Numbered from the stretch's first letter, positions 26,131 through 43,234 are shown. The stretch: DNA of 64,000 bases from Gemmatimonadota bacterium (GCA_022340865.1 JAJDNC010000061.1:15648-79647), one strand, 5' to 3'. The notes: a model not told the origin generated them from the sequence alone. Numbers and translations: made by a program.

Positions 26131-27492
26131 CTACTCGCTCCCTGCGGACGCCTCGCGCACCAACGTCCTCTTCCACGACCCTCTTCTGAACCACACGGCA
26201 GCCACCAGAAACGTCACCGAGTCGGCCAGGGGGAAGGCCCACCATATGCCGTGGGGTCCACGGTTCAGGGAGTAACCGACGACGTAGGCCAGTGGGAGCA
26301 CGATGACCCAGCGGTCCAGGTACGACAGTGCCATGGCCCGCGCGGTGCGCCCCGCGCCCCGAAAAGCCCCCTGCAACACGATCAAGCCGCCCCAGAAGCC
26401 GATGAACCAGCCGTAGGTCCGCAGGTAGACGGTACCCTCGGCGATGGTGGCCGGATCATCGATGAAGAAGCGCACCAGGTGGGGTGCGAAGATGGCCGCC
26501 AGAAAGCCGACAGAGGTCATCAGGGCGGCCGCCAGGCCCACCGACATCCAGGCCACGTGCTCCGCACGGTCGCTCTGCCGCGCCCCCAGGTTCTGCCCGA
26601 CACCCGCGTTGGTGGCCTGCCCGATGGCCCCGGACACGCCCCACACCACGGACATCACGCGAACCCCGATGGCGTAGGCCGCCGTGACCACCGCACCAAA
26701 CCTGGTGACCAGCGCCATGATCGCCACCGACGAGAAGCTCCGGCCCGCTGCATCGGCCGTGGCCGGTGCACCAAGGAAGAGAATCTCCCGCATCACCGCG
26801 AGGTCGGGCTTGAAGTGAGCGAGGCGGATCTTGATCCCCTTGCTGCCCTCGAGCAGGTAGAAGACGCCCACCGAGGCCGCGAGGAACCGCGCGACCAGCG
26901 TGGCGATCGCGGCACCCTTGATTCCCCAGCGCGGGATCGGGCCGATACCGGTAATGAAGAGCGGATCGAGAACGATGTTGGTCAGGCTCGCCACCAACAT
27001 CAGCTTCATCGCCGTGAGCGTGTCTCCCGAGCCGCGCAGCGCCGCGCTGAAGGCCATGAACAGGTAGCTGAACGGCACGCTGATGAAGATCACGGACACA
27101 TAGCTGAGGGCCAGCGGAAACACCGCGCCCCGCGCGCCCATGAAGTGCAGCAGCGGAACCCGAACCGCCTCGCCTATGGCCGCGAGGCCCAGGCCCAGGC
27201 CGGCGGACATCATGATGCCCTGGGCGGCGTAGTAGCCGGCGCGGTCGTGGAGCTCGGCTCCCGTGTACTGCGCGGTGAACGTGGCGATGGCGATGGTGAT
27301 CCCGGTGCCGATGGAGATCAGCACCCAGGCCGTGGGGAAGACGATCCCGACAGCTGCCACCGCGCTGGTGGAGTGGAGTCTCTGGCCCACCCAGAACATG
27401 TCAGCCAGGTTGTAGATCGTTTGCAGCGTATTCGCTAACACCAACGGCCAGGCCAGTTGGACGATCCGCGGCAGGATCGGTCCGACGGTCAT
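26131..27492 (-). CDS. MATE family multidrug/toxin efflux transporter
   Basis: It has ILPRIVQLAWPLVLANTLQTIYNLADMFWVG and 12 TM segments. The start is ATG 27492 or ATG 27579, the latter overlapping the upstream MFS gene. The longest ORF (to 27699) is implausible. Confidence 0.8.
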   Translation of the reverse strand: MTVGPILPRIVQLAWPLVLANTLQTIYNLADMFWVGQRLHSTSAVAAVGIVFPTAWVLISIGTGITIAIATFTAQYTGAELHDRAGYYAAQGIMMSAGLGLGLAAIGEAVRVPLLHFMGARGAVFPLALSYVSVIFISVPFSYLFMAFSAALRGSGDTLTAMKLMLVASLTNIVLDPLFITGIGPIPRWGIKGAAIATLVARFLAASVGVFYLLEGSKGIKIRLAHFKPDLAVMREILFLGAPATADAAGRSFSSVAIMALVTRFGAVVTAAYAIGVRVMSVVWGVSGAIGQATNAGVGQNLGARQSDRAEHVAWMSVGLAAALMTSVGFLAAIFAPHLVRFFIDDPATIAEGTVYLRTYGWFIGFWGGLIVLQGAFRGAGRTARAMALSYLDRWVIVLPLAYVVGYSLNRGPHGIWWAFPLADSVTFLVAAVWFRRGSWKRTLVREASAGSE

Positions 27493-27562
27493 GTTCACGC
27501 GGTGCCCACGCCGATGCGGATATGCCTTTGTCGTCACGGCGCTCTCGCTGTCACGCTCCCGA

Positions 27563-28888
27563 TCATCGATCAAGTCCATTCCACCGGGGATCGACCGGCT
27601 CCGTGAGTCGAGGGGATCCCGGCTCATGGTGGGTCCTCCGCCCGCGCCCGTGCACGTGCCGGGCTGCCGCCAAGCCGAATGCCGCAGCCCCGAGCGCACC
27701 GAGGCCGCCCACGACGACGGCCGCGCGCGCGCCCAATGTATCGGTAATCGCTCCCAGAATCGGGCCGCTGATCGGCTTCGTGCCCGCGAACAACACGGCC
27801 TGTATCGAGAGCACGCGCCCGATCATCCGCTGGTCGGCGCGGATCTGGACGATGGCGGAGGTCGCGGTCATGTAGGCGACGCTGGCGCCTCCGACCGCGA
27901 CGGCCAACACGATCGCGATGGTGACGTCGGGGGCGGCCGCGAGGACGAGCATCGCCACCCCGAGCCAGAGGGCGCCCACCGCGACGGTTCGGATGCGGAT
28001 CGTGGTCCGTCGGGCCACGAGCACCGCACCGGCCACCGCGCCCGCGCTGAAGGCCGAGTAGAGGATCGTGTAGGCGACGTCACTCCCGCCCAGCCCCTTC
28101 TCGACGAAGAGGGGGAAGAGCACCGAGAAATTGTAGCTCACGGTACCGACGATGAGGAGCATGCCGAACGGAGCCCAGAGCTCGGGGATGCCGGCGATGT
28201 ACCGGAGGCCGGCGCGGATCTGTCCCCTGCCCCGCGGCGCCGCTTCCAGTCGGCGCAGCTCGGCCGTGCGCATCATGGCAAGCGCGACGAGCACGGTCGT
28301 GTAGGATGCCGCGTCGATGGTGAAGCACCATCCGTATCCGACGGTCACGATGAGGACGCCGGCCAGGGCCGGGCCCGCGATGCGGGAGATGTTCACCATC
28401 GCGCTGTAGACGGTCACGGCGTTGGGAACGTCCTCGAGCGCCACCATCTCGTTGACGAACGTGCGCCGGACCGGATTGTCGAAGGCCAGCATGACGCCGC
28501 CCGCCACGGCGGTGCCGTAGAACGCGAGGAGGGGCGCGTCGTGCATGAAGGCGAGCGCGGCCAGCGCGAACGACTGGCACATCTCCAGCGTCTGTGTGAC
28601 GAAGAGGAGCGTGCGCTTCTCGGTCCGGTCGACGACGACGCCCGCCCAGGGCGCGAAGAGCAGGATCGGGCCGAACTGGCATGCCGACAGCACGCCGACC
28701 GCCACGCCGCTCCCCGTGCGGTGGAGCACGAGCAGGGTGAGGGCGATCCGGGTGAGCCAGTTGCCGGTATTGGAGACGGTCTGCCCGAAGAAGAAGAGCC
28801 GGAAGTTCCGCCACCGCAGGGACGCGAGCGTGCGGCGGACGAAACCGGGCTCGGGCACGGGAGACCTCCGGCTGGGCTGGTGCGGCAC
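27563..28888 (-). CDS. MFS transporter (EntS/MFS_3-like exporter)
   Basis: It has WRNFRLFFFGQTVSNTGNWLTRIALTLLVL and 12 TM segments. Confidence 0.8.
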   Translation of the reverse strand: MPHQPSRRSPVPEPGFVRRTLASLRWRNFRLFFFGQTVSNTGNWLTRIALTLLVLHRTGSGVAVGVLSACQFGPILLFAPWAGVVVDRTEKRTLLFVTQTLEMCQSFALAALAFMHDAPLLAFYGTAVAGGVMLAFDNPVRRTFVNEMVALEDVPNAVTVYSAMVNISRIAGPALAGVLIVTVGYGWCFTIDAASYTTVLVALAMMRTAELRRLEAAPRGRGQIRAGLRYIAGIPELWAPFGMLLIVGTVSYNFSVLFPLFVEKGLGGSDVAYTILYSAFSAGAVAGAVLVARRTTIRIRTVAVGALWLGVAMLVLAAAPDVTIAIVLAVAVGGASVAYMTATSAIVQIRADQRMIGRVLSIQAVLFAGTKPISGPILGAITDTLGARAAVVVGGLGALGAAAFGLAAARHVHGRGRRTHHEPGSPRLTEPVDPRWNGLDR

Positions 28889-28896
28889 GGAGCGCT

Positions 28897-29334
28897 TCAG
28901 AGGTGCTGAGCCAGTCGCTCGATGAGGGGAGCTGCGGCCGCCAGCCGCTTGAGCTCCGCTTGCGTGAACCCACTCGACAGCGCGCGCGTCAACCGCTCCG
29001 TGCGTGCGGCGCGGCGGCTGCGCAGCATGCGGAGCCCCTCGCCCGTGACGGAAAGGATCATGCGCCGCCCGTCGTCCGGATCGGGCCGGCGCTGAATCAG
29101 GCCGCGACGCTCGAGGGCGGCGAGCGTCGCGCCCATCGACTGGGGGCTGATCTGTTCGAGCCTGGCAAGGGCCGCCGCGGTGCTCGGGCCGCCACGATCC
29201 AGCCAGGCCAGGGCCGAGGTCTCGGGCAGCGTGAGCTCGCCGCCCGCTTCCGTCTGCCGAATCCGCCGCCGCAGCAGACCGATGCTCGTACGAAGGGCTC
29301 CCGCGATTTCCTGGACATCCAGATCCTGGTGCAT
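28897..29334 (-). CDS. MarR family transcriptional regulator
   Basis: It shows the winged-HTH pattern: LTLPETSALAWLDRGGPSTAAALARLEQISPQSMGATLAALERRGLIQRRPDPDDGRRMIL. It is the first gene of a marR-MFS-MATE operon. Confidence 0.85.
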   Translation of the reverse strand: MHQDLDVQEIAGALRTSIGLLRRRIRQTEAGGELTLPETSALAWLDRGGPSTAAALARLEQISPQSMGATLAALERRGLIQRRPDPDDGRRMILSVTGEGLRMLRSRRAARTERLTRALSSGFTQAELKRLAAAAPLIERLAQHL

Positions 29335-29693: not shown

Positions 29694-31265
29694 ATGTCGC
29701 TGCGCGCTCGTGCGACGCTGCCCGACCGCTTCAACGCGGCCGAGTGGTTCGTGGGCCGGCACGTCCGGGAGAACCGTGCAGACCGCACGGCCGTCGTCTC
29801 GGACGAGGGCACGCTCGATTACGCCGGCCTGGACGAGGCGGTACGGCACCGCGCCGCGGCGCTCCTCCAGGCAGGCCTGCATCCGGGTGATCGGGTGGCC
29901 CTCCTGCTGCCGGACGGACCGGAGCTGCTGTCGCTGTTCTGGGGCGTTCTCGCGGCCGGCGGCGTGGCCGTGCCCTTGAACACGCTGCTCGGCGAGGACG
30001 AGATCTCCCGCATCCTCGATGACTGCGATCCGCGGATCGTGGTGGCGGATCCCGCACTCGCCGACGCCCATCGTCTTGCGCGCGAGGGCACCGTCTTGTG
30101 GTCTCCCGCGGAGTCGGCGGACCGCGCCGCCTTGGTGCCGCCGGTCACCGCGTACGCCTCGACCCGACGCGACGGGGTGGCCTTCTTCCTGTATTCGAGC
30201 GGGACGACAGGGGAGCCCAAGGGAGTCGTCCACCTCCACCACGACATGTGGGTATGCTGTGCGACATACGGAGAGCAGGTGCTCGGGATCCGGCCCGACG
30301 ACCGCTGCCTGAGCCTGGCCAAGCTGTTCTTCGCGTACGGCCTCGGAAACTCCGGCTACTTCCCCGCCCATGAGGGCGCGGCCACGGTGCTCTTTGCGGG
30401 GCGCCCCACACCGGCGGCCATGTTCGAGCAGGTGGCCCGCCACAGGCCCACGCTCTTCTTCGCCGTCCCGACGGCCTACGCCCAGATGCTCGACGCCATG
30501 GAGCGCGGCGAAGATGCCGACTTCTCGAGCGTGCGGCTGTGCGTGAGCGCCGGGGAGTCGCTGCCCGCTCCGATCTTTCGGCGATGGCTGGAGCGCACCG
30601 GAACCGAGATCCTGGATGGCATCGGCTCGACGGAGATCTGCCACATCTTCCTGTCGAATCGGCCCGGCGCGTGCGCCCCTGGCACCACGGGTCGTCCCGT
30701 CCCGGGATACGACCTGCGCCTCGCCGACGAGGACGGGCGCGACGTGCCAGCCGGTCAACCCGGCGACCTCTTCGTGTGCGGCGACTCCACCATGGCCTTG
30801 TACTGGAACCGCCACGAGGAGACCAAACGCACTCTCGAGGGCGACTGGATCCGCACCGGCGACAAGTATCTCGTGGACGAGGACGGCAACTGGAGGCACG
30901 CCGGCCGGAGCGACGACATGCTCAAGGTCGGAGGGATCTGGGTCTCGCCGGTGGAGGTCGAAGCCACTCTGGTGGCGCACGAGGCGGTGCTGGAGTGCGC
31001 GGTGGTGGGCGAGAGAAACGCGGAGGGACTCGTGAAGCCCGCGGCATTCGTGGTGCTGAAGAACGGGGCGACAAGGGCGAGTGTCGAGGGTGCGATGGGA
31101 AACAGCGTCGATGGGATCGCTCGCGAGCTCCAGGACTTCGTCAAGGAGCGGCTGGCTCCCTACAAGTACCCCCGCCACATCCTGTTCCGGGATGCGCTCC
31201 CCAAGACCGCCACCGGCAAGATCCGACGCTTCTTGCTGCGCCAGGAGTTGGAGGCGAACCCCTGA
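29694..31265 (+). CDS. Benzoate-CoA ligase family aromatic acid-CoA ligase (AMP-forming adenylating enzyme)
   Basis: It has FNAAEWFVGRHV..., YSSGTTGEPKGVVH (AMP-binding P-loop), KLFFAYGLGN (characteristic of the benzoate/4-hydroxybenzoate/2-aminobenzoate-CoA ligase clade), GDKY and PKTATGKIRRF. A GGGAGG SD is present. Confidence 0.8.
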   Translation: MSLRARATLPDRFNAAEWFVGRHVRENRADRTAVVSDEGTLDYAGLDEAVRHRAAALLQAGLHPGDRVALLLPDGPELLSLFWGVLAAGGVAVPLNTLLGEDEISRILDDCDPRIVVADPALADAHRLAREGTVLWSPAESADRAALVPPVTAYASTRRDGVAFFLYSSGTTGEPKGVVHLHHDMWVCCATYGEQVLGIRPDDRCLSLAKLFFAYGLGNSGYFPAHEGAATVLFAGRPTPAAMFEQVARHRPTLFFAVPTAYAQMLDAMERGEDADFSSVRLCVSAGESLPAPIFRRWLERTGTEILDGIGSTEICHIFLSNRPGACAPGTTGRPVPGYDLRLADEDGRDVPAGQPGDLFVCGDSTMALYWNRHEETKRTLEGDWIRTGDKYLVDEDGNWRHAGRSDDMLKVGGIWVSPVEVEATLVAHEAVLECAVVGERNAEGLVKPAAFVVLKNGATRASVEGAMGNSVDGIARELQDFVKERLAPYKYPRHILFRDALPKTATGKIRRFLLRQELEANP

Positions 31266-31303
31266 GCCAACGTTCGTGGCGGCGTGGTCGGGCCTTCCTC
31301 GAC

Positions 31304-32053
31304 GTGGGCGGCGCTCACCTGGAGGTTCGCCGCTTCGGCCCGCCACCGTCGGAAGCGCCGCCCATCGTCTTCCTTCACGAGGGGCTCGGATCGGCCCGGC
31401 AGTGGCGTGACTACCCGGCGCGGGTGTGCGACGCGCTCGGGCGGAGCGGCCTCGCGTACAGCCGGGTCGGCTATGGCGCCTCGGACCCGGTCGAGCTTCC
31501 ACGCCCCGTCTCGTTCATGCACCTGGAGGCGTACGATGTCCTTCCAGTGCTCCTCGACGCCGCCAGCATCGGGAGAGTGGATCTGTACGGTCACTCGGAC
31601 GGCGCCTCCATCGCCCTGTTGTTCGCGGCGCGCCACCCGGAGCGGACGGGCGCCATGGTGCTGGAGGCGCCGCACGTGTTCGTGGAGGAGGTCACCACGC
31701 GGAGCATCGCCCGCATCGGCAAGGTGTACCGCACCACGAATCTGCGCGAGAAGCTGGCCCGGTGGCACGACGACCCCGACGGCGCCTTCCGCGGCTGGAA
31801 CGAGGTGTGGCTGGACCCGGCGTTCCGCTCCTGGGACATCCGTCGGGAGCTCCCCGGTGTCCACGCTCCCGTGCTGATCCTCCAGGGCGCGGACGACGAG
31901 TACGGGACCTGGGCCCAGGTAGACGCGGTGGAACGGGGCGTGGCCGGCTCGGTCCGCTCGGTCCGGATCCCGGTATGTGGCCACGCTCCCCATCGGGACC
32001 AGCCGGACCGGGCACTCACGGAGGCCGTGGCGTTCCTGGCCGCGACGGCCTGA
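31304..32053 (+). CDS. Alpha/beta-fold hydrolase
   Basis: Only the 3' third of listed ORF 30539-32053 is real. It has IVFLHEGLGS, the nucleophile elbow GHSDGA, and C-terminal GHAPH. The proposed GTG start at 31304 is the first in-frame start after the ligase stop. Confidence 0.7.
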   Translation: MGGAHLEVRRFGPPPSEAPPIVFLHEGLGSARQWRDYPARVCDALGRSGLAYSRVGYGASDPVELPRPVSFMHLEAYDVLPVLLDAASIGRVDLYGHSDGASIALLFAARHPERTGAMVLEAPHVFVEEVTTRSIARIGKVYRTTNLREKLARWHDDPDGAFRGWNEVWLDPAFRSWDIRRELPGVHAPVLILQGADDEYGTWAQVDAVERGVAGSVRSVRIPVCGHAPHRDQPDRALTEAVAFLAATA

Positions 32054-32060
32054 CCACCCC

Positions 32061-33086
32061 TCAACCCGCCTTCCGGCCCTCCGCGAAGCCACTCAGCAGG
32101 CGGTGGACGCAGGTGCCGAGGACCTGGACGTTGTAGCCGCCTTCCTGGCAGAGGAGAACGGGACAATCGATGCGCGCGATACGCCGACCGATCTCCTCGT
32201 ACACCTCGGTCGTCAGGGCGAAGCCGCCGATGGGATCGTCGGCGTGGGTATCGAAGCCGGCCCCTACGACGAGGGCGTTCGGCCCGAATCGGCGTATCGC
32301 CTTCAGAGCGCGATCCAGGGCCTTCAGGTACGCCGCATCGCCGCTGCCCAGCGCGAGCGGGAGATTCAGGTTCGTTCCCGCCGCCTGGCCCACACCGCGC
32401 TCCGAGCCGTACCCCCAGAAGTATGGATACTCGCGCTTCGGATCGCCGTGGATCGAGCAGGTGAAGACGTCCTTGCGCTCCTCGAAGAACTCCTGGTTGC
32501 CGTTTCCGTGGTGGTAGTCGATGTCGAGCACCGCCACGGTCCCCGCGGCCGCAAGGATCTCGACGGCCGCAGCGACGTTGTTGAAGTAGCAGTATCCGCC
32601 GAAGACGCGCGGGCCGGCGTGGTGGCCCGACGGCCGGCAGAGCGCGTAGACCTCACGCTCGCGGCCGTCGAGCAGAAGCTGTGCGCCGGTCATGGCCGCC
32701 TCCGCCGAGCCGCGTGCCACCTCGTAGGTGCGGCCCATGATCGGGGTCACGGCGTCGGTGCAGTACAGGCCGCCCCACAGGGCGTCGAGCTTGCGGGGAA
32801 GTCGCGCTCCCTCGCCCGGAAAGAGGTCCGGGTAGATCTCCTCGCCGGCGCGGCGCGCCACCCTCGACGTCTTCTTGATGAAGTCGTGGTACGGATGGAG
32901 TCGCGAGAGGTTGGCTTCGGGAAAGCGTCGTGCCTTGCGGAAACGGAAGCGCGAATCGGCGGCGAGCGCCTCCCGGATCACCTCCACGCGCCGCGGGGTG
33001 TCCTTGGTCTCGTAGGTCTCGGGCCCGAGCGTGAACTTCCAGCTCGGGTTGTGCAGGCCGAAGTTGGTCTTCTCAATGATGAGCAC
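32061..33086 (-). CDS. Histone-deacetylase-family (HDAC/acetylpolyamine amidohydrolase-like) zinc amidohydrolase
   Basis: It has CRPSGHHAGPRVFGGYCYFNN, VLDIDYHHGNG, GFDTHADDP and QEGGY motifs. The GTG start at 33086 is preceded by GGAAGGGA and overlaps the upstream gene by 14 nt. The listed ORF extends implausibly to 33524. Confidence 0.8.
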   Translation of the reverse strand: MLIIEKTNFGLHNPSWKFTLGPETYETKDTPRRVEVIREALAADSRFRFRKARRFPEANLSRLHPYHDFIKKTSRVARRAGEEIYPDLFPGEGARLPRKLDALWGGLYCTDAVTPIMGRTYEVARGSAEAAMTGAQLLLDGREREVYALCRPSGHHAGPRVFGGYCYFNNVAAAVEILAAAGTVAVLDIDYHHGNGNQEFFEERKDVFTCSIHGDPKREYPYFWGYGSERGVGQAAGTNLNLPLALGSGDAAYLKALDRALKAIRRFGPNALVVGAGFDTHADDPIGGFALTTEVYEEIGRRIARIDCPVLLCQEGGYNVQVLGTCVHRLLSGFAEGRKAG

Positions 33087-35223
33087 GGATATCCCTTCCG
33101 TTGCGCAGGAGCTCGATGACGGTGTCCAGCGGCAGGGCCGGAGCCCGCCGGTCGAGGCGGCCGTCCATCCCGTTCGAGCAGAAGATGGCGTTGAGCACGG
33201 CCTCCTCGGTGGCCTCCACGGCCGCCTCGTAGAGCACGTCGATGTGCCCGTCGGGGACGTAGCGCAGTGATCGGAACTTGCTGGTCTGTGTCGCGGTCCG
33301 TGGAACCCGGTTCGCGGTCGTGAAGGCGAGGACGATCTCGCCGCTCGTGGAGGCGGCGTACGATCCCACGCGGCCCAGACCCAGAGCCGCGCGCTTTGCG
33401 ATGCGCCCGAGCTGATGGCTGAGCAAAGGGACGTCGGTGGCCACCACCACGATGGCCGAGCCGTAGCTGTTGTGGCGACGCCCCTCGTCCGCGTACTGCG
33501 AATCCAACTCCCGGCCGACGACACGGCCGTCCACGGTCAGGTTGACCAGTCGACCGAAGTTCGAAAGGACGAGCACCCCGAGGGTAAAGCTGGTCTCCTC
33601 GATGGGGAAGATGCGCGAGGCCGTGCCGATCCCCCCGGCGAAGTCACAGGTCATCATCCCGCAGCCGGCACCGACGGACCCCTGGGCCACGGGTCCGTCC
33701 CGCGCCGACTCGATCGCTTTCAGTGTGTCCTGTCCCGAAGCGACGCCCACACGAGCGTCGTTGAGGAACGAGTCGTCCGCCTCTCCGACCACCGGTAGCA
33801 CCACGTCCTCGGCGTCGCCGATCTCCGGGTGGCGTCGGGCCATGTAGGAGTTCACTCCGTTCAGGACCCGGCCCACAGACAGCGAGTTGGTGAGCAGGAT
33901 CGGTGTCTCGATTAGACCCCACTCCATCGCCTGTGTGAGGCCGGCCATCTCGCCGACCCCGTTCAGCACGAAGGCACCCGCGACCATACGTCGCCGGAAG
34001 ACGTCTCCAGCCCCGGGGATGACGGCAGTGACCCCGGTGCGGACGCGCGTGGTGTCGCTCGTGCCCGGTACCGGAGCGTCGTCTTCGAATCGCGTGACGT
34101 GCCCGACACGGACGCCCTTCACGTCGGTGATGGCGTTGTTCAGGCCCGCGTCCAGTCGTCCGATGGTCACGCCGAGCTGTCGCGCCGTGGGGCGCGCCTC
34201 CCCTTCGCCGTCGCCCTCCCTCCGACCCGGTGTTCGCACAGGCAGTCTGTGGCGCCGGGCGGCCGAACGCACGATGAGCCGCATCACGTCCTTGAACTCC
34301 AGTCCACAGGTTCTGGCCGCGGTCATCAGCGACGCCTGCGGATGCAGGCTGGGCAGCGGATTCAGCTCGATGAAGTACGGATCTCCATTGTCGTGGAGGC
34401 GGATGTCCACACGTCCCAGATCGGGACAGTGCATGACCTCGAAGAGGTGACGCGCCATCTCCACCACCCGTTCACGCTCGTCGGCGGTGAGCTCGGCGGG
34501 ACAGACCACGTTGACGGCCCGCGCCCTGTCTCCTCCCTGCTTCATGTCGTAGTCGTAGATGTTGTACTTGCCGCCGACCGCGGCGAGGTCGAACGTGTGC
34601 TCGACGACGGCGAGGATCTTGCCCGGATAACTCTCCAGAAGCGGAATGCTCAGCTCGCGGCCCGGGATGAACTCCTCCACCACCAGACCGGCCGGATAGC
34701 GCGCGAGCATCTTCTCGGCCAGGGCTTCGAAGGCTTCCCGGCTCTCGACCACCGAGTCCTGTGTGACCCCCTTGCTCGACCCCTCGGCGTTGGGCTTCAC
34801 CATCAGCGGGAACTCGATGCCCGTCGGGATGTCTCGCCGCGTGGGCGTGATCACCCCTCCTCGAGGGACCCGGATGCCGCGAGCGGCCACCACGGTCTTC
34901 GCAAGGTGCTTGTCCAGGTTCATGTGCAGCAGCGAGGGATTGCCTCCGCTGAACGGAAGGCGGAGCTGCTCGTAGAGACCGGGATAGAAGGCTTCCCGCG
35001 ACGTGCCGATCGTGCCCTCGGCGAGGTTGAAGATCAGGTCGGGGTCACTGTCCAGGAGCCGCTCGACGACGTCATCGGGCTGACCCGTCACCTCCACCGG
35101 CGTCACCTTGTGGCGGAGTTGGCGCAGCGCCGAGCAGATTCGGTCGATGTCCTCCGCAGTCAGGAGCTCGGCCGTCTCCTCCGAGGCATCGGTGCGCAAG
35201 TTGTGGGCGACGGTGATCCGCAC
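33073..35223 (-). CDS. Fusion protein: D-alanine-D-alanine-ligase-like ATP-grasp domain (N-terminal) plus peptidase S58/DmpA-BapA (P1) aminopeptidase domain (C-terminal)
   Basis: A GTG start at 35223 lies 5 nt after AAGGAGG. The N-terminal half has ATP-grasp motifs (FPLMVKPNAEGSSKGV, VVEEFIPGRELSIPLL, GRVDIRLHDNGDPYFIELNPLPSL). After an Arg/Gly/Glu-rich linker, the C-terminal half begins NAITDVKGVRVGHVT and contains GSVGAGCGMM...GGIGTASR and YGSAIVVVATDVPLLSHQLGRIAKRAALGLGRVGS. The last resembles the Gly-Ser self-cleavage site and following strand of DmpA/BapA-type enzymes. Confidence 0.75.
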   Translation of the reverse strand: MRITVAHNLRTDASEETAELLTAEDIDRICSALRQLRHKVTPVEVTGQPDDVVERLLDSDPDLIFNLAEGTIGTSREAFYPGLYEQLRLPFSGGNPSLLHMNLDKHLAKTVVAARGIRVPRGGVITPTRRDIPTGIEFPLMVKPNAEGSSKGVTQDSVVESREAFEALAEKMLARYPAGLVVEEFIPGRELSIPLLESYPGKILAVVEHTFDLAAVGGKYNIYDYDMKQGGDRARAVNVVCPAELTADERERVVEMARHLFEVMHCPDLGRVDIRLHDNGDPYFIELNPLPSLHPQASLMTAARTCGLEFKDVMRLIVRSAARRHRLPVRTPGRREGDGEGEARPTARQLGVTIGRLDAGLNNAITDVKGVRVGHVTRFEDDAPVPGTSDTTRVRTGVTAVIPGAGDVFRRRMVAGAFVLNGVGEMAGLTQAMEWGLIETPILLTNSLSVGRVLNGVNSYMARRHPEIGDAEDVVLPVVGEADDSFLNDARVGVASGQDTLKAIESARDGPVAQGSVGAGCGMMTCDFAGGIGTASRIFPIEETSFTLGVLVLSNFGRLVNLTVDGRVVGRELDSQYADEGRRHNSYGSAIVVVATDVPLLSHQLGRIAKRAALGLGRVGSYAASTSGEIVLAFTTANRVPRTATQTSKFRSLRYVPDGHIDVLYEAAVEATEEAVLNAIFCSNGMDGRLDRRAPALPLDTVIELLRNGRDIRAHH

Positions 35224-35404
35224 GTGTTCCTCCTTGTTTCGATCTCGCCGACGCAACGGGTGTCCGGCCTCTCCCCGGCGCGAGGAAGGGCCTGGAGACA
35301 AGATCGGAACGTCCCGTGGATAGGTATCGAACCGCAAGCACAGACGTCAAACGAGGGCATGGGCGGCAGCGCCGCCGCCCTCTGGGGTAGGCGCGGTCGG
35401 TCCG

Positions 35405-36118
35405 CTACCCGGGTAGCGACGCGACCACCACCGTGGACGGCCCCTCCTGCCAGTCACAGCGCGCGTCGAAGCCCGCCGCCCGGAGAAGGCGGAGCTCCTC
35501 CTCCAACGGGAAGTAGGTGTCCTCCGACGCCCACTCCGCGAAGTGCTTCCACGCCCGCGCCTCTGGGATGCCCGACGACACGAGATGGTCGGCCCAGCCG
35601 CGGAACGCCATGTCGCGATCCGGGCCCTCCGCCGGCATGGTGACGTCCGCGTTCACCAGGACGCCGCCGGGTCGGAGCGCCGTCGCCACCCTCCGGAAGA
35701 TCTCCGCCTTGGCGTCCAGCGTCGCGATGTGGTGGAGGGAGAGGGATGCGGCGACGGCGTCGCACGAGGGGATGGGATCCGCGAAGGACCGAAGCGTGAA
35801 GCGCACCCGGTCGCCGTGGTCCTTCAAGCGGACGCGAGCCTGAGACAGCATCTCCGGGTCCACGTCCACCAGCTCGACCACGCCTACGCCCTCGTGCCAC
35901 AGGATGGCCTCCGAGAGGGCGCCTGTCCCGGCACCGAGATCGAGGACGAGGGCCGGGGCGACGGACGCCACCGCGGCGGCCGCCCGGACGAGCATGGTGT
36001 CGTACCCGGGAATGAACTGTCGGATGGCGGCGTCGTATCCGACGATGTCCACCCGGAGGTGGCGGCGAACGCTGTGGCTCAACGGGGTGGCCGTGCCATG
36101 GGAGTCAGCGGAGGGCAT
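35405..36118 (-). CDS. Class I SAM-dependent methyltransferase
   Basis: It has motif I VLDLGAGTGALSE and the downstream acidic VELVDVD. It overlaps the 3' end of the upstream peptidase gene by 14 nt. Confidence 0.75.
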   Translation of the reverse strand: MPSADSHGTATPLSHSVRRHLRVDIVGYDAAIRQFIPGYDTMLVRAAAAVASVAPALVLDLGAGTGALSEAILWHEGVGVVELVDVDPEMLSQARVRLKDHGDRVRFTLRSFADPIPSCDAVAASLSLHHIATLDAKAEIFRRVATALRPGGVLVNADVTMPAEGPDRDMAFRGWADHLVSSGIPEARAWKHFAEWASEDTYFPLEEELRLLRAAGFDARCDWQEGPSTVVVASLPG

Positions 36119-38675
36119 CCTCCGCCTGCTTCAGAGCCGCGGTCGCGTGGTCGAACCGCGACGCCAGGTCCGCGATCTCGCGCCCGGTCCGGGCCTCGTC
36201 GCCCGCGCGGATGGCCTCCTTCACCGATGGGAACACCATGGTCGCGTAGCCGTTGTCCTCGTCGGCGACGTACACGAGGTTGCGGAACCAGGAGCGCCCT
36301 ACCAGCCCATGCGGCCGCGTGAGGGCACGCTCGACCCGGAGCAGCGCGGCGTTGGTCTTCTCGAGCGTGCTCCCGGACGGCTCCTTGCCCGCCAGGGCCG
36401 CATCCCGCGTCGCGGCGAAGGACTTCGCCCGGGCCTCCATACGATCGATGGCGGCCGAGAGCGCGCTCGTGTCCAGCGTCCAGCCGTGCTCCGAGAGGGA
36501 CTTGCCGAGAGCCGGGAGGTATCCGCGCATCGTCTTCGCATACTCGACATAGTCGTAGGGGAGCACGTCGGCGTTGGCGATGCGCAGCGCGATGGCCGCC
36601 CCGAGCTGCGCGGCAGCGATGTGCTCTCGGTACCCCGGGTCGCCGAAACGTGACATCCATGCGGGGTCGTCGTACTGCGAGTGGTAGATCCCCTGAGCGC
36701 CGCCGAAGCCCCACTCGAGGATCGGGATGCCCAGGTGGTTGTAGAAGCCGGCGTAGTCGGAGCCGCCGCCCGGGTCGCCCATGCGCGGCTTCTGCCCCTC
36801 GGGCGTGTGCGACTGGGCCATCCACGCGTCCCAGAGCGACCCTTCGTTGGGCGTGTCGGGGGTGTCCGGCGCCGGCACCTCTTCGGCCGCCGAGCGCAGC
36901 ACCGCCCGTAGCGAGGGCGAGCCGCCGCCGCCGAAGGTCGGGCCGGACGCGATCATGTCCTGGTTCAGATAGGCGACGCCGCCCTTCTCCAGCCGCAGCG
37001 AGTCGTCCTCCACGTACTCCACCGAGCCCACCAGCCCCCACTCCTCCGCGTCCCATGTGGCGAAGACCATGGTACGCTTCGGCCGCTTCCCCGCCTTCAG
37101 CTCGTCGGCCACCGCGTGTGCGATCTCCATAACGCTGACCGAGCCGCTCACGTTGTCGTCGGTGCCCGGGCCCCAGGCATCGCGGTGCCCACCGACCACG
37201 ACGATCTCGTCCGGGAACTCGCTGCCCCGTACCACCCCGAAGGTGTCCCAGATGTGCTTGTACGGCGCCGTCTCCTCATCCGTCTTCACCGCGACGCGCG
37301 CCACGACGGGGCCCGGCCCGACGTGGTACCGGAACGGGAGGCCACCCTGCCAGTAGTCGGGGATGTCGGTGCCGCGCACGCCTTCCAGGAGCTCCTGGGC
37401 GTTGCCATAGGAGATCGGGACGACCGGGATGTGCGGGATCACCGAATCGGGGGAGACGCGCGGCGCGTCCTCTTTGCTCGGGTAGCCCGGCGTAGTGGGG
37501 TCGCCATCGACGTTCAGCACGCTGCCGCGCTGGACGCCGAACTTCGGGCGCATGGGGCCCTCGGGGTAGACATCGCCCTGGTCGTAGCCGTCATCGGCCG
37601 GGTCGCTGTAGATGAGGAGCGCCGCCGCGCCGTGCTTCTCCGCCTCGCGCGCCTTGATGCCGCGGAACGAGCGGCCGTAGCGGGCGATCACGATCTTGCC
37701 CTTCACCGACACGCCCAGCGAGTCGAGCTTCGCGTAGTCCCCGATGAGCCCGTAGTTCACGTAGACGACGGGCGCGGTCACGTCCCCCGCCGCGCTACTG
37801 CCGTTCACAGTCGGGTACTGCGGCTCGGCGCTCACCCGGTCGCCCGGCACCGGCGGCTCCGCCAGTGAGAGCTCCTCGGGGTCCGGGCTCACGCGCCAGA
37901 CGTGTACCGCCGTCGCGTGCGGGAGGTAGACCTTGTACGTGCGGTACGAGGTGGACAGACCCCACGCCTTCATGCGCCCGAGCACGGTGTCGCGCGTCAT
38001 CGCCTGTGCCGGCGTGCCGGCCACGTGGATCTCGCTGCTCAAGGCGACGGATTCCGCCCGCGCCTCACCGGTGTCGGGCCGCGTCACCGCGTCCGCCTCG
38101 AGCGCTCGCTCGCGCACCGACGCGGCAGGGGTGTAACCGGGAAGCTGCTGCGCCGCCAGCGGGGCCGCGCAGATCCAGAGCGCCGGCGCCAGCGCCGGCA
38201 GGAGGGAGGATCTCATTCCGATGTCCGTCCAGGTCTTCCCCGCGTCCGTGGACCTGTACATGCCGTCGCCCCAACTGGACGACTGGCCGCGTGGCTCCGA
38301 CTCGCCCATCCCGGCATACACCACGTTGGGATCGCTGGGCGCGACGGCGAGCGCGCCGATGGAGCCCATGCGAATCTGGTTGTCGGACACGTTGTTCCAG
38401 GTGATGCCGGCGTCGGTGGTCTTCCAGATGCCGCCGCCCGTAGCACCCATGTAGAAGGTCTTGGGCTGCTGTGGTATTCCGGTGACGGTGGTTACGCGAC
38501 CCCCGCGGTAGGGGCCGATGCTGCGCCAGTGCAGTCCGCCGAAGAGCGTCGAGTCGAACGTCGAAGCGCCCGTGACCAGCTCGGGCGGTGTCTGGGCGGT
38601 GGCGGACGGGGCCGTCAGGGTCAGCGCGACGACGACGAGGGCGCCGGTCGCGAACGGAATGCGGGCAGATCGCAT
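36105..38675 (-). CDS. M28 family metallopeptidase of the glutamate carboxypeptidase II/transferrin-receptor-like type (PA + M28 + TfR-like dimerisation domains). The ORF is extended at its 5' end by a duplicated sortilin-like gene fragment, and the native start is probably ATG 38216.
   Basis: The PA domain has VVYVNYGLIGDY...GKIVIARYGRSFRGIKAREAEKHGAAALLIYSDP. The M28 metal ligands are GGHRDAWGPGTDDNVSG and ATWDAEEWGLVGS. A C-terminal helical dimerisation-like domain follows. Residues 1-153 of the ORF are near-identical to the N-terminus of the CDS at 57932-61105. Residue 154 onward (MRSSLLPALAPALWICAAPLAAQQ) looks like the peptidase's own signal peptide. Confidence 0.75.
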   Translation of the reverse strand: MRSARIPFATGALVVVALTLTAPSATAQTPPELVTGASTFDSTLFGGLHWRSIGPYRGGRVTTVTGIPQQPKTFYMGATGGGIWKTTDAGITWNNVSDNQIRMGSIGALAVAPSDPNVVYAGMGESEPRGQSSSWGDGMYRSTDAGKTWTDIGMRSSLLPALAPALWICAAPLAAQQLPGYTPAASVRERALEADAVTRPDTGEARAESVALSSEIHVAGTPAQAMTRDTVLGRMKAWGLSTSYRTYKVYLPHATAVHVWRVSPDPEELSLAEPPVPGDRVSAEPQYPTVNGSSAAGDVTAPVVYVNYGLIGDYAKLDSLGVSVKGKIVIARYGRSFRGIKAREAEKHGAAALLIYSDPADDGYDQGDVYPEGPMRPKFGVQRGSVLNVDGDPTTPGYPSKEDAPRVSPDSVIPHIPVVPISYGNAQELLEGVRGTDIPDYWQGGLPFRYHVGPGPVVARVAVKTDEETAPYKHIWDTFGVVRGSEFPDEIVVVGGHRDAWGPGTDDNVSGSVSVMEIAHAVADELKAGKRPKRTMVFATWDAEEWGLVGSVEYVEDDSLRLEKGGVAYLNQDMIASGPTFGGGGSPSLRAVLRSAAEEVPAPDTPDTPNEGSLWDAWMAQSHTPEGQKPRMGDPGGGSDYAGFYNHLGIPILEWGFGGAQGIYHSQYDDPAWMSRFGDPGYREHIAAAQLGAAIALRIANADVLPYDYVEYAKTMRGYLPALGKSLSEHGWTLDTSALSAAIDRMEARAKSFAATRDAALAGKEPSGSTLEKTNAALLRVERALTRPHGLVGRSWFRNLVYVADEDNGYATMVFPSVKEAIRAGDEARTGREIADLASRFDHATAALKQAEDALR

Positions 38676-39143: not shown

Positions 39144-40643
39144 ATGAATACGTTGAGCCGTGTCGGCTTCGCCGGCCTGCTCCTCGGGCTGGCCGCGGGG
39201 CCGATCCACGCCCAGACCAACGGCTTCGAGCTGCAGTGCATGTCGGCTCGGGCGGCGGGGCGCGGATGCGTCACCCGTGCCCAGCCGGATCTTCCCACCT
39301 CGCTCTTTCGTGATCCTGCGGGGATCGCGGTCTTCACGCGTCCCGTCCTGGAGGTGAACGCGGCACCCTTCATGCCGACGCTCACCTTCCAGAACGCCGT
39401 GAACGCCCGTACGGAGGGCGCCCGTCATGCCTACCCGCTCTTTTCCGCGGCGTACGTGGGCCGTCCCATCGGGGAGCGCCTGCACTGGGCGGTGGGGCTC
39501 GAGCCCATCGGCGGCTTCGGCTCCGACTTCAGGCTCCAGAACGCGCTGCTCAGCGGAGCGAGTGGAACGCCCGTCGACTACAAGAGCTTCTTCATGGCGG
39601 TCAAGGTCGGACCCACTCTGGCCTACGAAGTCCTTCCCGGACTCAGCGTCGGCGCGAGCGTGAGCGGAGTCTACGCGCAGATTCGCGAGTTCCAGATGCC
39701 CTTCACCATGGCGCCCTCCTTCGCGCAGGGCATGGCCGCCATCCCGCAGCTCGACCCGGCCGTGTACGGACCGCTCTTCCAGCAGTTCACGGAGATGACG
39801 GCGTACGGGGACTCGAAGGGGTTCGCCGGGCTCACCTGGGCCGCCGACGCGGGCGCGGCGTATCACGCCCCGTCCGGATGGGCGGTGGCGGCATCATGGA
39901 GCCCGAAGCGGACCATCAGGCTGGACGGCGGTACCGCCTCCATCGACATGAGCGCCCAGTTCCAGCAGATGCTGGGAGCAATGGTGGCCGCGCGTGCAGC
40001 GGCGTACAACGAAACCCTGCAAGTGGCCCAGGGCGTGGTCATGGGACAGCTCGCGGCGGCGGGGCTCGACCTCACGGAGGGAATGAGCGCCGTCTACGCC
40101 GCCTCGACCGATCTGACCCTGCCCATGACCATCGGGGCGGGTCTCCACGCTCCCGTCCGGTCCTGGTGGGCCCTTTCCGCCGAGGTGGAGTGGCGCCAGT
40201 GGTCCAGGGCGGAAGCCACCATGCCCTTCCGCCTGACGGGAGGCGACAACACCAACCTGAATCTCCTGGTGAACGGAAGTCCGACGAACGGCTCGTTCGC
40301 CTACCCCTTCCCCTTGAACTGGAAGGACACCTGGTCGTGGAAGGTGGGGAGTGAGTTCACCGTCCCGGGTGGGTACGTGCTCCGGGCCGGATTCCTCTCC
40401 GGGGCGGATCCCGTGCCCGCCAACACGGTCTTCATCGCGTTCCCGGCCATCGCCACCCGAGCGGTCACCCTGGGTGTGGGTACGCAGATCCTCGGCTTCC
40501 CCCTCGACATCGCGTACGTGCACGCGCTCTCCCAGGAGCTCGAGGGGAACTCGGTGCACTCTCTCATGGGGGCGGAGTACGTCGGGAGCCGCACGACCAT
40601 GCGCCAGGATGTCCTGACCCTGGGGACGACGTTCCACTTCTGA
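39144..40643 (+). CDS. FadL/TodX/OMPP1-family outer-membrane hydrophobic-compound transporter
   Basis: It has a signal peptide ending HAQ, alternating beta-strand patterning and a terminal aromatic residue (...TLGTTFHF). A GGAGG SD is present. The family call is made by overall resemblance only. Confidence 0.6.
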   Translation: MNTLSRVGFAGLLLGLAAGPIHAQTNGFELQCMSARAAGRGCVTRAQPDLPTSLFRDPAGIAVFTRPVLEVNAAPFMPTLTFQNAVNARTEGARHAYPLFSAAYVGRPIGERLHWAVGLEPIGGFGSDFRLQNALLSGASGTPVDYKSFFMAVKVGPTLAYEVLPGLSVGASVSGVYAQIREFQMPFTMAPSFAQGMAAIPQLDPAVYGPLFQQFTEMTAYGDSKGFAGLTWAADAGAAYHAPSGWAVAASWSPKRTIRLDGGTASIDMSAQFQQMLGAMVAARAAAYNETLQVAQGVVMGQLAAAGLDLTEGMSAVYAASTDLTLPMTIGAGLHAPVRSWWALSAEVEWRQWSRAEATMPFRLTGGDNTNLNLLVNGSPTNGSFAYPFPLNWKDTWSWKVGSEFTVPGGYVLRAGFLSGADPVPANTVFIAFPAIATRAVTLGVGTQILGFPLDIAYVHALSQELEGNSVHSLMGAEYVGSRTTMRQDVLTLGTTFHF

Positions 40644-41500: not shown

Positions 41501-43234
41501 CTACCCGAACACCGAGTCCAGCTCGGCGTCGGATACGTCGAAGGTCACGTTGTGGGGCGCCAACGGCTCCCGCTTGAAGTAGCGGGGCAGACGGTCGTCG
41601 GCGCTGGTGAACCCGGCCCGCTGGTTGAAGTCCCGCTCGAAGGCCAGGATCTTGCTGCCGTAGGCGGCCACGCCGGCGGCGTCGAGGTTCCATCCGTAGT
41701 AGGCGTTCAGCAGGTCCACCAGGGCCTGGAACGTGTCGGGCTGATCCAGCACGGCGAACGCGATGAACAGACACATGCCGGTGGCGTCCACGGCGGCGGT
41801 GGCGATCTGGAGGTTCTTCGACAGCTCGGCCTGCCCCTCCGCCTTCAGCGGGTCCACGTCGCCGCCCACCTTCAGGATGTTGGTGGCCACGGCGTAGCCG
41901 GCGGTGTGATCGGCCCCCATGGGGGAGGTGGCATAGGTGACGCCTATGCCCTTCACTGCGCGAGGATCGTAGGCCGGCATGGCCTGTCCCTTGACGCAGG
42001 GCGCGTGCTCGATGCCGTACACCCGGGCCGTCGTGGCCGTGCCCGAACCGAGGATACGGCCCAGGGGCGTGCCCTTGCCGACCTCGCGCACCAGCTCGAT
42101 GGCGGCCTGGCCGTCGCCGAACTTCGCCACCCCCGCCTCCATCGCGACGGCGATGGTGGCCCCCATCTCGATGGTGTCGAGGCCGTAGTCGTCGTCCAGG
42201 CGGTCCAGCTCGGCGATGACGTCCAGGTCGTCGATGCCGCAGTTGGCTCCGTGAGCCCAGACGGTCTCGTATTCGGGCTGTTTGGTGACGTACCTCCCGT
42301 CCTTGTTCACGAAGGTGCCGGAGCACTGGATGATGCACCCCCGGTGGCAGCCGTGGGTGGCACTCCCACCCCGGGCCACCTCCAGCTCGGCCTGGGTCTC
42401 GCCGCTGATCTTGGAAGCGCCTTCGAACTGGCCGGTGGCGAAGTTGCGAGTCGGCAGCCCCCCGGCCTCGTTGATGACGTTGGTGAGAACGTTGGTGCCG
42501 TAGGCCGGCAGGCCCTCGCCCGTCACCGGATGCTTCTCCAACCCCTCCACCCATGCCTTGCTTGCCGCCTTGAAGGCCTCAGGGTCGGCGGGCTTGCGTG
42601 ATTTCGCACCTTTGGCGTCGATGAGGATGGCCTTGATCCCCTTCGACCCCATGACGGCACCTACCCCCCCACGCCCGGCGTGACGGGTCGGGCGACCCTC
42701 CATGTCGGTGATGCTGACGGTGGAGTTGCCGTATCCCATCTCCCCGGCCGTGCCGATGGCGATCATCGCCCCGGTCTTGTCATACTCGCCCAGGAACTTG
42801 TCCATGAGCTGGTAGTTGGTGGCACGGCGTACGGACGGGTCCGCAGTGATGGTGACCCCGTCCTTGCTGATGCGAACGACGTACAGATCATCGCCCTGAC
42901 GCGCGCCTTCCAGCACGATGGCGGCATAGCCCAGACGGGCCAGGAGCTGCCCCGCCTGGCCCCCGGCGTTGGCCTCCTTGATCCCCCCGGTAAGGGGGCT
43001 CTTGCACCCTACCGAGATGCGGCCACTCATGGACGCGGCGGTTCCGGAGAGGAGTCCCGGCGCGATGACCAGCTTGTTCTCGGGTCCGAGGGGATGGGCG
43101 TCGGCCGGGACCTCGGTGGCTACGATGGCCGAGGTCAGCCCCCGCCCGCCGAGGCCGGCGTAGTCACCCACGGGCGTTGGCGTCGCTTTGGGTCCGCCGG
43201 CCGCTCCAACGTCGATTCTCAGAATCGTGTCCAT
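41501..43234 (-). CDS. Aldehyde:ferredoxin oxidoreductase (AOR) family tungsto/molybdopterin enzyme
   Basis: It has the typical AOR N-terminus MDTILRIDV...GGRGLTS...NKLVIAPGLLSG...GRISVGCKSPLTGGIKEANAGG, and AOR domain 2/3 motifs (DxxGLD: DDYGLDTIE; CxxxC-containing region HGCHRGCIIQC; KGQAMPAYDPR). Confidence 0.85.
   Translation of the reverse strand: MDTILRIDVGAAGGPKATPTPVGDYAGLGGRGLTSAIVATEVPADAHPLGPENKLVIAPGLLSGTAASMSGRISVGCKSPLTGGIKEANAGGQAGQLLARLGYAAIVLEGARQGDDLYVVRISKDGVTITADPSVRRATNYQLMDKFLGEYDKTGAMIAIGTAGEMGYGNSTVSITDMEGRPTRHAGRGGVGAVMGSKGIKAILIDAKGAKSRKPADPEAFKAASKAWVEGLEKHPVTGEGLPAYGTNVLTNVINEAGGLPTRNFATGQFEGASKISGETQAELEVARGGSATHGCHRGCIIQCSGTFVNKDGRYVTKQPEYETVWAHGANCGIDDLDVIAELDRLDDDYGLDTIEMGATIAVAMEAGVAKFGDGQAAIELVREVGKGTPLGRILGSGTATTARVYGIEHAPCVKGQAMPAYDPRAVKGIGVTYATSPMGADHTAGYAVATNILKVGGDVDPLKAEGQAELSKNLQIATAAVDATGMCLFIAFAVLDQPDTFQALVDLLNAYYGWNLDAAGVAAYGSKILAFERDFNQRAGFTSADDRLPRYFKREPLAPHNVTFDVSDAELDSVFG

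Follow-up and report, generated by a model that had tools for sequence, protein, structure and literature searches.

A fusion of Ddl-like ATP-grasp and S58 aminopeptidase domains, conserved across bacterial phyla and followed by an APAH-like deacetylase gene

The fusion gene and its locus

Within a 64,000-nucleotide (nt) stretch of DNA from a Gemmatimonadota bacterium (GCA_022340865.1 JAJDNC010000061.1:15648-79647; the whole stretch is hereafter called the window), one minus-strand gene encodes a Ddl-like ATP-grasp domain and an S58/P1-type aminopeptidase domain in a single chain (hereafter the fusion), and is followed by a gene for an HDAC-fold deacetylase resembling acetylpolyamine amidohydrolases (APAH). 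A sequence-only reading of the window had pointed out the two-domain polypeptide; the near-constant downstream APAH-like gene and the recurrent neighbours ablA and ablB, which we describe for the wider family, were both absent from it and are new here, as are the split and tandem forms of the ligase-peptidase pair. The features of the locus, with the evidence for each, are as follows (aa, amino acids; ORF, open reading frame).

33073..35223, minus strand: fusion gene, 716 aa plus stop, Ddl-like ATP-grasp, linker and S58/P1 aminopeptidase (ORF, Pfam)
35229..35235, minus strand: ribosome-binding site AAGGAGG, with a 5-nt spacer to the GTG start at 35223 (read from the sequence)
34249..35223, minus strand: Ddl-like ATP-grasp half, aa 1-325 (Pfam, NCBIfam, DdlB alignment, invariance, fold)
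34186..34248, minus strand: variable Arg/Gly/Glu/Pro-rich linker, aa 326-346 (model confidence, alignment, start of the PH0078 alignment)
33076..34185, minus strand: S58/P1 (DmpA/BapA/PH0078-like) half, aa 347-716 (Pfam, alignments, Foldseek, invariance)
33457..33462, minus strand: predicted autoproteolytic site Gly588/Ser589, YG/SAIVVVATD (alignment with DmpA and BapA)
32061..33086, minus strand: APAH-like (HDAC-fold, PF00850) deacetylase gene, 341 aa (Pfam, PDB matches, conserved site)

Translation of 33073-35223 on the minus strand gives 716 codons with no internal stop and a terminal TGA within these coordinates; on the plus strand the same interval is interrupted by many stops. The position and length previously proposed for this gene were borne out, and its strand, which had not been given, is minus. 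Because AAGGAGG precedes the GTG at 35223, and because the N-termini of homologues begin in alignment at the same MRIT... residue as this GTG, we take the 716-aa product to be the right one; a longer ORF from a TTG at 35337 was rejected as the gene on the same two grounds. The G+C content at third codon positions (0.84) is like that of the other coding ORFs of this 68% GC window. All six motifs quoted in the sequence-only reading are found in the translation: KPNAEGSSKGV (aa 143-153), EEFIPGRELSIPLL (aa 183-196) and RVDIRLHDNGDPYFIELNPLPSL (aa 271-293) in the first half, and NAITDVKGVRVGHVT (aa 363-377), GAGCGMM..GGIGTASR (aa 518-537) and YGSAIVVVATDVPLLSHQL (aa 587-605) in the second. Pfam recovers both domains far above the curated cut-offs, and these profile matches, together with matches to solved structures and the predicted fold, uphold the fusion of two domains in one polypeptide; the catalytic residues of both halves are present on alignment and invariant across the family. 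As the best explanation, we propose that the gene encodes a cytoplasmic bifunctional enzyme.

Conservation and distribution of the family

In a collection of 5.8 billion proteins, our search yielded over 1,600 relatives. Of these we inspected the best 120, which are mostly 708-742 aa long, carry both Pfam domains at 63-98% identity, and come from Acidobacteriota, Kiritimatiellia, Bacteroidota, Planctomycetota, Spirochaetes, Bdellovibrionota and others; their database names are automatic (“P1 family peptidase”, “D-alanine--D-alanine ligase”). Scanning one genome per species across 185,579 species genomes, we found a relative in 416 and kept the best 80 loci, all of which match both halves on one strand. 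In 73 of these 80 the alignment starts at residue 1 of the window protein and reaches residue 702 or beyond, and in the remaining loci either a contig end falls within the gene or the alignment is in several pieces. A second, independent sample of 50 metagenome loci behaved alike, with both halves aligned from residue 1 to at least residue 702 on one strand wherever no contig end lay inside the gene. Overall, the taxa of the genome loci include Thermoanaerobaculia, Kiritimatiellae, Lentisphaerae, Planctomycetota, Marinilabiliales, Desulfobulbales (cable bacteria among them), Calditrichota, Sumerlaeota, Psychromonas, Ignavibacteria and Gemmatimonadota, and carriers among named isolates or finished genomes include Marinilabilia salmonicolor JCM 21150, Draconibacterium halophilum and Psychromonas sp. 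MB-3u-54; the closest named relatives of the fusion among the matches listed belong to Thermoanaerobaculia/Acidobacteriota.

A chain of ~715 aa is thus kept in relatives from many phyla at 61-73% identity, and in a 50%-identity representative library the whole fusion family is a single full-length representative. Identities of 61-66% between phyla suggest strong constraint, horizontal spread, or both. The pairing had been called unusual and the protein not a characterised enzyme. The latter agrees with what we found: relatives bear automatic names only, no PDB chain covers more than one half (query-normalised template-modelling (TM) score at most 0.47, and likewise by sequence search), and the open-access literature yielded no paper on an ATP-grasp plus S58 architecture, although absence from that literature is no proof. 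The former needs qualifying, since an architecture found in so many phyla, however uncharacterised, is neither rare nor peculiar to this genome; it is already present, unnamed, in public databases.

The breadth of the family also bears on whether a frameshift in sequencing or assembly could have joined two neighbouring genes into one. ATP-grasp and S58 are indeed encoded side by side by separate genes elsewhere (see below); however, the 716-codon frame is uninterrupted and continuous in relatives, and the same chain occurs in more than 100 database clusters and on more than 100 independent contigs of different projects, which rules out such an artefact.

The ATP-grasp half

Dala_Dala_lig_C (PF07478) matches aa 132-318 with 101.8 bits against a cut-off of 24 (4.7e-29), the PDB sequence matches of this half are Ddl and Van ligases only, and its predicted structure has the Ddl fold (TM about 0.78 to Ddl structures; Foldseek, target-normalised). 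In alignment with DdlB of Escherichia coli (about 24% identity), DdlB residues K97, K144, E180, K215, R255, D257, E270 and N272 correspond to K105, K143, E183, K228, R271, D273, E286 and N288, and the ATP, Mg2+ and acyl-phosphate residues are invariant in 48 family sequences. Glu15 and Ser150 of DdlB, at the amino-group site, are also kept (E15 and S149, invariant as well), so that the half shares with DdlB (2DLN/1IOW) and the VanA-type ligases both the three-domain ATP-grasp fold and these two sets of residues. Elsewhere the site differs: DdlB Tyr216 is replaced by Gln229 and His63 by Glu69, both invariant in the 48 sequences, Glu19 is invariant across the family, a 10-residue insertion follows the EEF(I) strand, and the equivalent of DdlB Ser281 is ambiguous (A297/S298). 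In Ddl, Glu15 binds the amino group of the acyl donor while the donor carboxylate is phosphorylated, and the region of Tyr216 and Ser281 shapes the site of the incoming nucleophile. In the fusion the first of these Ddl sites is kept and the second altered, with extra invariant acidic residues.

The assignment of this half to the Ddl-like ATP-grasp enzymes therefore holds at the level of the domain, whereas its score falls below the NCBIfam cut-offs for Ddl (142.7 bits against 243 for the subfamily model and 115.4 against 245.65; NF002378/TIGR01205) and far below those of all equivalog models, and no equivalog or subfamily model in NCBIfam accepts the fusion protein. Because the Ddl cut-offs are failed and Tyr216 is replaced by an invariant Gln, a D-Ala-D-Ala product is not to be assumed, and the half, Ddl-like as its sequence looks, should not be named a D-Ala-D-Ala ligase.

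These same data weigh on a cell-wall role, in which a true D-Ala-D-Ala ligase would be fused to a D-aminopeptidase trimming D-Ala peptides. The best-scoring characterised relatives of the N-terminal half are indeed Ddl enzymes, and DmpA cleaves N-terminal D-Ala. We nevertheless consider this role very improbable given the distance from the equivalog cut-offs, the low identity to DdlB and the altered Tyr216, to which can be added the absence of mur/ftsQ genes from the contexts of the loci examined, the occurrence of the fusion in just 416 of the 185,579 species genomes, and a near-constant deacetylase partner without a role in D-Ala-D-Ala synthesis. Ddl itself differs from the fusion in having no peptidase attached, and the fusion lies outside a cell-wall gene context.

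The S58 half, its self-processing site and the linker

Peptidase_S58 (PF03576) covers aa 363-691 over model positions 1-304 of 307 (350 bits against a cut-off of 23.9, 1.8e-104). Among solved structures, the sequence matches of this half are PH0078 (2DRH, 1.4e-83), DmpA (1B65), a Burkholderia beta-aminopeptidase (5TZB) and BapA (3N2W), and the DmpA-type alpha-beta-beta-alpha N-terminal-nucleophile fold is predicted with target-normalised Foldseek TM scores of 0.84-0.93 to the same four. The closest of them, PH0078 of Pyrococcus horikoshii (42% identity, TM 0.93), is an archaeal, stand-alone protein with no ATP-grasp domain, deposited as a “hypothetical D-aminopeptidase”, and we know of no characterised function for it. 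DmpA of Ochrobactrum anthropi and BapA of Sphingosinicella (MEROPS S58/P1) share the fold (TM 0.84-0.90, 36-37% identity), the autoprocessing position and the catalytic set with the fusion; they are stand-alone proteins of ~375 aa, whereas the alpha chain of the fusion carries a 345-aa N-terminal ligase plus linker.

Counted along the alignments, Gly588/Ser589 falls exactly on the cleavage sites of DmpA (Gly249/Ser250) and BapA (Asn/Ser250), as had been supposed for a Gly-Ser site in this protein, and both residues are invariant in the 48 family sequences. So are the equivalents of BapA Glu133, Ser250, Ser288 and Glu290 (E481, S589, S627 and E629). DmpA Asn218 and Ser288-Gly289 correspond to N555 and S627-G628, likewise invariant, and DmpA Tyr146 to Asp484. 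In DmpA and BapA, the residue at the Glu133 position engages the substrate through its free N-terminal amine, and Ser250, bared by self-cleavage, attacks the first amide bond. Cleavage at Gly588/Ser589 is predicted to give a 63.6 kDa fragment and a 13.8 kDa beta chain; by these computed masses the larger fragment holds both the ligase and the S58 alpha chain, so that the ligase would, as anticipated, stay tethered to the peptidase.

The AlphaFold2 model of the full chain has a mean predicted local distance difference test (pLDDT) value of 78.5, and both folds are recovered from it with Foldseek. Its lowest-confidence part, aa 331-341 (pLDDT below 50), lies in the linker, whose columns mostly show no consensus residue across the family alignments and which ends where the alignment with stand-alone PH0078 begins (aa 347). 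The Arg/Gly/Glu-rich linker of the sequence-only reading is therefore real, at about aa 326-346, and both low in confidence and variable.

The deacetylase partner

The GTG start of the partner gene overlaps the last codons and the stop of the fusion by 14 nt. Its product scores 224 bits with PF00850 and matches APAH entries in the PDB over nearly its full length (1.5e-62 to 3.8e-58, including 6PHR at 1.5e-62 and 3Q9B, from Mycoplana ramosa, at 3.6e-60), and its residues H155, H156, D190, H192, D279 and Y318, which comprise the Zn ligands, the His-His pair and the catalytic Tyr shared with APAH, are invariant in 54 orthologues. NCBIfam has no equivalog or subfamily model that accepts it.

In the first three contexts examined, this gene followed the fusion in all, and every other neighbour differed. 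Considering the 71 genome loci in which the fusion has at least 60% identity and some downstream sequence is left, an APAH-like gene lies downstream in 70, and in 60 of the 71 it is within about 70 nt of the fusion, often with the 14-nt overlap; every metagenome locus that leaves enough space for the gene has it too. A scan of 31200-35500 found no promoter or terminator, so that the operon limits rest on spacing. The deacetylase is translationally coupled to the fusion. This coupling to a ligase-peptidase, and the substrate proposed below (N-epsilon-acetyl-beta-lysine), distinguish the partner from APAH.

Two genomes carry two paralogous fusions each (L053/L082 in PVC bacterium CSSed11_89 and L065/L083 in Phycisphaerae D1M07_5, L numbers denoting loci), and in these pairs the copy of the ~64% identity clade has the APAH-like gene downstream, while that of the 50-52% clade does not.

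Recurrent neighbours from the abl pathway

To look for further partners, the ORFs on either side of the fusion in the genome loci were clustered, with roughly 12-20 kb covered at each locus, and a Pfam census was taken of 65 putative operon members. ORF clusters 3 and 4 were discarded as antisense shadow ORFs, produced by greedy longest-ORF clustering in high-GC loci. The sole further recurrent function in the census was a GNAT protein together with a radical-SAM/LAM_C protein, which NCBIfam, where scanned, identifies as ablB (TIGR03827, 269-343 bits against 205) and ablA (TIGR03820, about 760 against 525). ablA encodes lysine 2,3-aminomutase and ablB the beta-lysine N-epsilon-acetyltransferase, which together make N-epsilon-acetyl-beta-lysine, a compatible solute of methanogens. 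The pathway as described consists of these two enzymes, and we know of no ligase, peptidase, HDAC-type deacetylase or catabolism belonging to it; the open-access literature likewise yielded no paper on an HDAC-type acetyl-beta-lysine deacetylase.

The abl genes adjoin the fusion/deacetylase pair in a reproducible minority of loci, namely 9 of the 80 genome loci and 4 of the 50 in the independent metagenome set. The nine genome loci belong to at least five phyla (Psychromonas, Lentisphaerales, Bacteroidales, Desulfobulbales/delta, Bdellovibrionota and Syntrophales) and show three or more gene orders. Four of the nine have ablB only (L031, L044, L045, L047), three have both genes (L025, L042, L071) and one has ablA only (L037), while in the ninth (L012, Psychromonas sp. 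MB-3u-54) an intact ablB lies downstream of the pair, accompanied by an ablA remnant. The remnant (9604-9812) reduces ablA to its first ~48 and last ~39 residues, which looks like an internal deletion; ablA is intact in the other Psychromonas (L071).

L025 and L031 each have, in the same gene string, an ABC ATPase of polar-amino-acid type and a fused binding-protein/permease. In L042 the fusion-deacetylase pair has ablB on one side and, on the other, the Na+/solute symporter with which the abl cluster of Marinilabiliales terminates, and in Desulfobulbales-type loci ablB, fusion and deacetylase form one string. A stand-alone homologue of the N-terminal half (47% identity) lies within an ablA-ablB-HDAC-ATP-grasp cluster (L085), and on a metagenome contig (L093) the fusion-deacetylase and abl modules are 7 kb apart. 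The gene directly after the stand-alone ATP-grasp in L085 (7204-8508) encodes a 434-aa protein with no Pfam match, which may stand in place of the S58 partner; the interval in L093 (2387-7250) holds KaiB, a KaiC-like ATPase and a PAS histidine kinase/response regulator, between the pair and a MarR-ablA-ablB-MarC-SSF cluster. As an order-of-magnitude argument, genomes being several Mb in size, adjacency to abl by chance should be well under 1% even were abl present in every genome. We regard the association as a lead to the substrate, short of a demonstration.

The same census bears on an alternative in which the fusion is a polyamine-conjugate synthetase/amidase, its ligase aminoacylating putrescine, cadaverine or spermidine freed by the APAH-like enzyme and its S58 half hydrolysing the conjugate. 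The partner's matches are to bona fide acetylpolyamine amidohydrolases and its catalytic residues are intact, DmpA-type enzymes are known to hydrolyse aminoacyl amides, and the invariant acidic E69 and E19 might, as a weak hint, suit a cationic substrate. There is a precedent in logic, if not in fold, in the glutathionylspermidine synthetase/amidase of E. coli (Gss), one polypeptide with an ATP-dependent amide synthetase and a hydrolase of the same amide bond. The Gss hydrolase is an N-terminal CHAP-type cysteine amidase without self-processing and its synthetase belongs to a different ATP-grasp-like family, neither half of the fusion being related to Gss in sequence; in the fusion, Pfam finds solely the Ddl-type ATP-grasp and S58 domains, and neither a GspS-type synthetase nor a CHAP amidase. 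Among the neighbours in the 80 genome loci, no gene for polyamine biosynthesis, acetylation or transport is recurrent, whereas ablA and ablB are, and we hold the polyamine alternative to be unlikely, if still worth keeping in view.

Split and tandem forms of the ligase-peptidase pair

The two halves also occur together as separate genes. The gene for the stand-alone S58 protein closest to the C-terminal half (P0124, 57% identity) follows a stand-alone Ddl-like ATP-grasp gene at a distance of 20 nt (L092), and two relatives of the N-terminal half, each ~680 aa (L086, L091), are tandem double ATP-grasp proteins whose genes are each overlapped by a downstream S58 gene. In L066 a tandem double ATP-grasp protein is encoded directly upstream of a fusion, making three ATP-grasp modules per one S58. 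The occurrence of fused and split forms of the same pair is classical evidence that ligase and peptidase work together.

The tandem proteins (~600-725 aa) contain two Ddl-like modules, each 30-40% identical to the N-terminal half of the fusion, and wherever the context is visible their genes are followed by an S58 gene or a fusion. Members are encoded at L066 3797-5890, L086 670-2697 and L091 2505-4598, and further ones are P0125-P0128, P0132, P0133 and P0135. A supposition that all relatives of ~650-720 aa are fusions proved wrong, all but one representative being tandem double ATP-grasp proteins. S58 domains are also fused to other partners: of P0244, P0235 and P0159, two carry a Beta-lactamase/S12-type domain (PF00144), on either side, and one a Rce1-like CAAX protease domain.

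The tandem forms are relevant to two further alternatives. In the first, the pair would be biosynthetic, with the S58 domain an acyl-transferase or maturation enzyme tailoring the ligase product, and with the acetyl group that AblB adds and the HDAC-like enzyme takes off serving as a transient protecting group in the synthesis of a dipeptide or oligomer containing beta-lysine. Tandem double ATP-grasp proteins, and in L066 three ATP-grasp modules, associated with one S58 suggest stepwise peptide assembly more than simple turnover, and the single string of ablB, fusion and deacetylase in Desulfobulbales-type loci would fit as well. Peptide formation by BapA and DmpA is known, as is aminolysis catalysed by BapA, the related ArgJ/DmpA superfamily holds transferases, and one report (PMC9235088) describes a DmpA-type aminopeptidase as an L-carnosine-synthesising enzyme. 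However, the full hydrolytic residue set of BapA is kept, no transferase-specific feature is seen in the S58 half, and there is no known candidate product; this alternative seems to us quite unlikely.

In the second, the ATP-grasp domain would add amino acids to a protein in the manner of RimK or TTL, with the S58 domain taking them off again and the partner serving as a lysine deacetylase. Other ATP-grasp families do modify proteins, HDAC-fold enzymes do deacetylate lysines, and one tandem ATP-grasp homologue has a faint TTL match in Pfam. Against this, the partner is nearer to the small-molecule APAHs than to protein deacetylases, no conserved candidate target gene lies near the loci, and S58 relatives act on small peptides and amides, all of which makes a protein-modifying pair highly improbable.

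Proposed function and mechanism

From the conserved residues of both halves we can outline how the enzyme might act. The ATP-grasp half would activate, as an acyl-phosphate, the carboxylate of an amino acid with a free amino group (the Glu15 equivalent being kept), and would join it to an amine other than the D-Ala used by Ddl (Tyr216 to Gln, His63 to Glu). The S58 half would cleave itself at Gly588/Ser589, making Ser589 the N-terminal nucleophile of the beta chain, and Ser589, with the BapA-like set of Glu481, Ser627 and Glu629, would remove a residue with a free N-terminal amine from an amide. The bond cut would then be of the same type as the bond made, and the fusion a synthetase/aminopeptidase pair for one class of aminoacyl-amide conjugate, comparable in its logic to Gss. 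Both halves suit amides in which a free-amine amino acid provides the acyl moiety, as would be expected if the peptidase cleaves the product of the ligase. The APAH-like partner, in a unit with the fusion, would free an aliphatic primary amine from an N-acetyl amide.

As for the substrate, beta-lysine and N-epsilon-acetyl-beta-lysine are the likeliest candidates, because the only other recurrent neighbours are ablA, ablB and amino-acid transporters. N-epsilon-acetyl-beta-lysine is N-acetylputrescine with a carboxymethyl group on the distal amine carbon, a likeness that makes it a plausible substrate for an APAH-type enzyme. We therefore propose that the fusion and its partner form a module interconverting N-epsilon-acetyl-beta-lysine, beta-lysine and an amide conjugate of beta-lysine: the deacetylase would carry the acetylated solute to beta-lysine and back, making and splitting the conjugate would fall to the fusion, and the module would control the solute pool or make a derivative of it. 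We favour this module tentatively, giving it, taken as a whole, somewhat less than an even chance; our confidence is high for the enzyme architecture and the coupling, and lower for the substrate. The data establish the gene, its domains and their intact catalytic residues, the conservation of the family, the operon partner, the split-gene equivalents and the association with abl; we infer the reaction directions, the action of both halves on the same bond and the identity of the substrates.

Several observations weigh against the beta-lysine module. Forming and hydrolysing the same bond within a single chain would amount to a futile cycle if it were not regulated, and we identified no regulatory element for the fusion; the AlphaFold2 predicted TM score of 0.55 permits no inference on the mutual placement of the two domains. 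The abl association is also far from universal: the window has no abl gene in its whole 64 kb (tblastn), about 88-92% of the loci have none within the examined flanks, and Carboxylicivirga has an abl cluster without a fusion within 10 kb. Finally, a minority clade of the fusion (50-57% identity) is mostly without the deacetylase, and the closest solved relatives of the partner are polyamine deacetylases, which would suit a polyamine substrate equally.

A bolder version would make the fusion and the deacetylase a new compatible-solute branch, in which the ligase condenses beta-lysine or acetyl-beta-lysine into a dipeptide or oligomer and the S58 half releases the monomers without ATP. The condensed product would then serve as a new solute or be stored in an osmotically “silent” form, and the pair would be a fast, reversible osmolyte buffer in anaerobic sediment bacteria of many phyla, having spread between them as a two-gene cassette. 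We think this version improbable, though attractive.

Other genes of the window

Upstream of the fusion by 181 nt lies a SAM-dependent methyltransferase gene (35405-36118, minus strand), and beyond it a gene for an 856-aa M28 protein (36105-38675, minus strand) with PA, Peptidase_M28 and TFR_dimer domains, the architecture of glutamate-carboxypeptidase-II (GCPII)/PSMA. The latter has a sortilin/BNR-like region at its N-terminus, and the stop end of its gene overlaps the methyltransferase start by 14 nt. Peptides of the N-acetylaspartylglutamate type are made by ATP-grasp enzymes, which is why an M28 neighbour first looked suggestive; as parts of the system, both the methyltransferase and the GCPII-like peptidase were rejected, not being conserved beside the fusion elsewhere. 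A second sortilin-like protein of the window, a 1053-aa Sortilin-Vps10/BNR-repeat protein, is encoded at 22105-25266 (plus strand). At 26131-29334 (minus strand), a MarR regulator, a transporter of the MFS_3 “transmembrane secretion effector” type and a MatE efflux pump follow in a row and look like an efflux/resistance cassette. A tungsten-type aldehyde:ferredoxin oxidoreductase (41501-43234, minus strand) and a FadL/TodX outer-membrane channel (39144-40643, plus strand) suggest an anaerobic, diderm host.

Implications

Ddl is an antibiotic target, and BapA and DmpA are biocatalysts for beta- and D-peptides; the fused form of the two, although more than 60% conserved, is uncharacterised. On either the beta-lysine or the polyamine reading, the family would be a source for biocatalysis of a naturally coupled ATP-dependent ligase and beta/D-aminopeptidase, and it offers a clean case for how a cell avoids a futile cycle within one polypeptide. 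Were the substrate a polyamine, the fusion would represent a second, non-homologous invention of the logic of glutathionylspermidine synthetase/amidase. Were it beta-lysine, the fusion and its partner would be the first turnover or derivatisation enzymes for the N-epsilon-acetyl-beta-lysine pathway, and would point to a new small-molecule amide in anaerobic and saline sediment bacteria.

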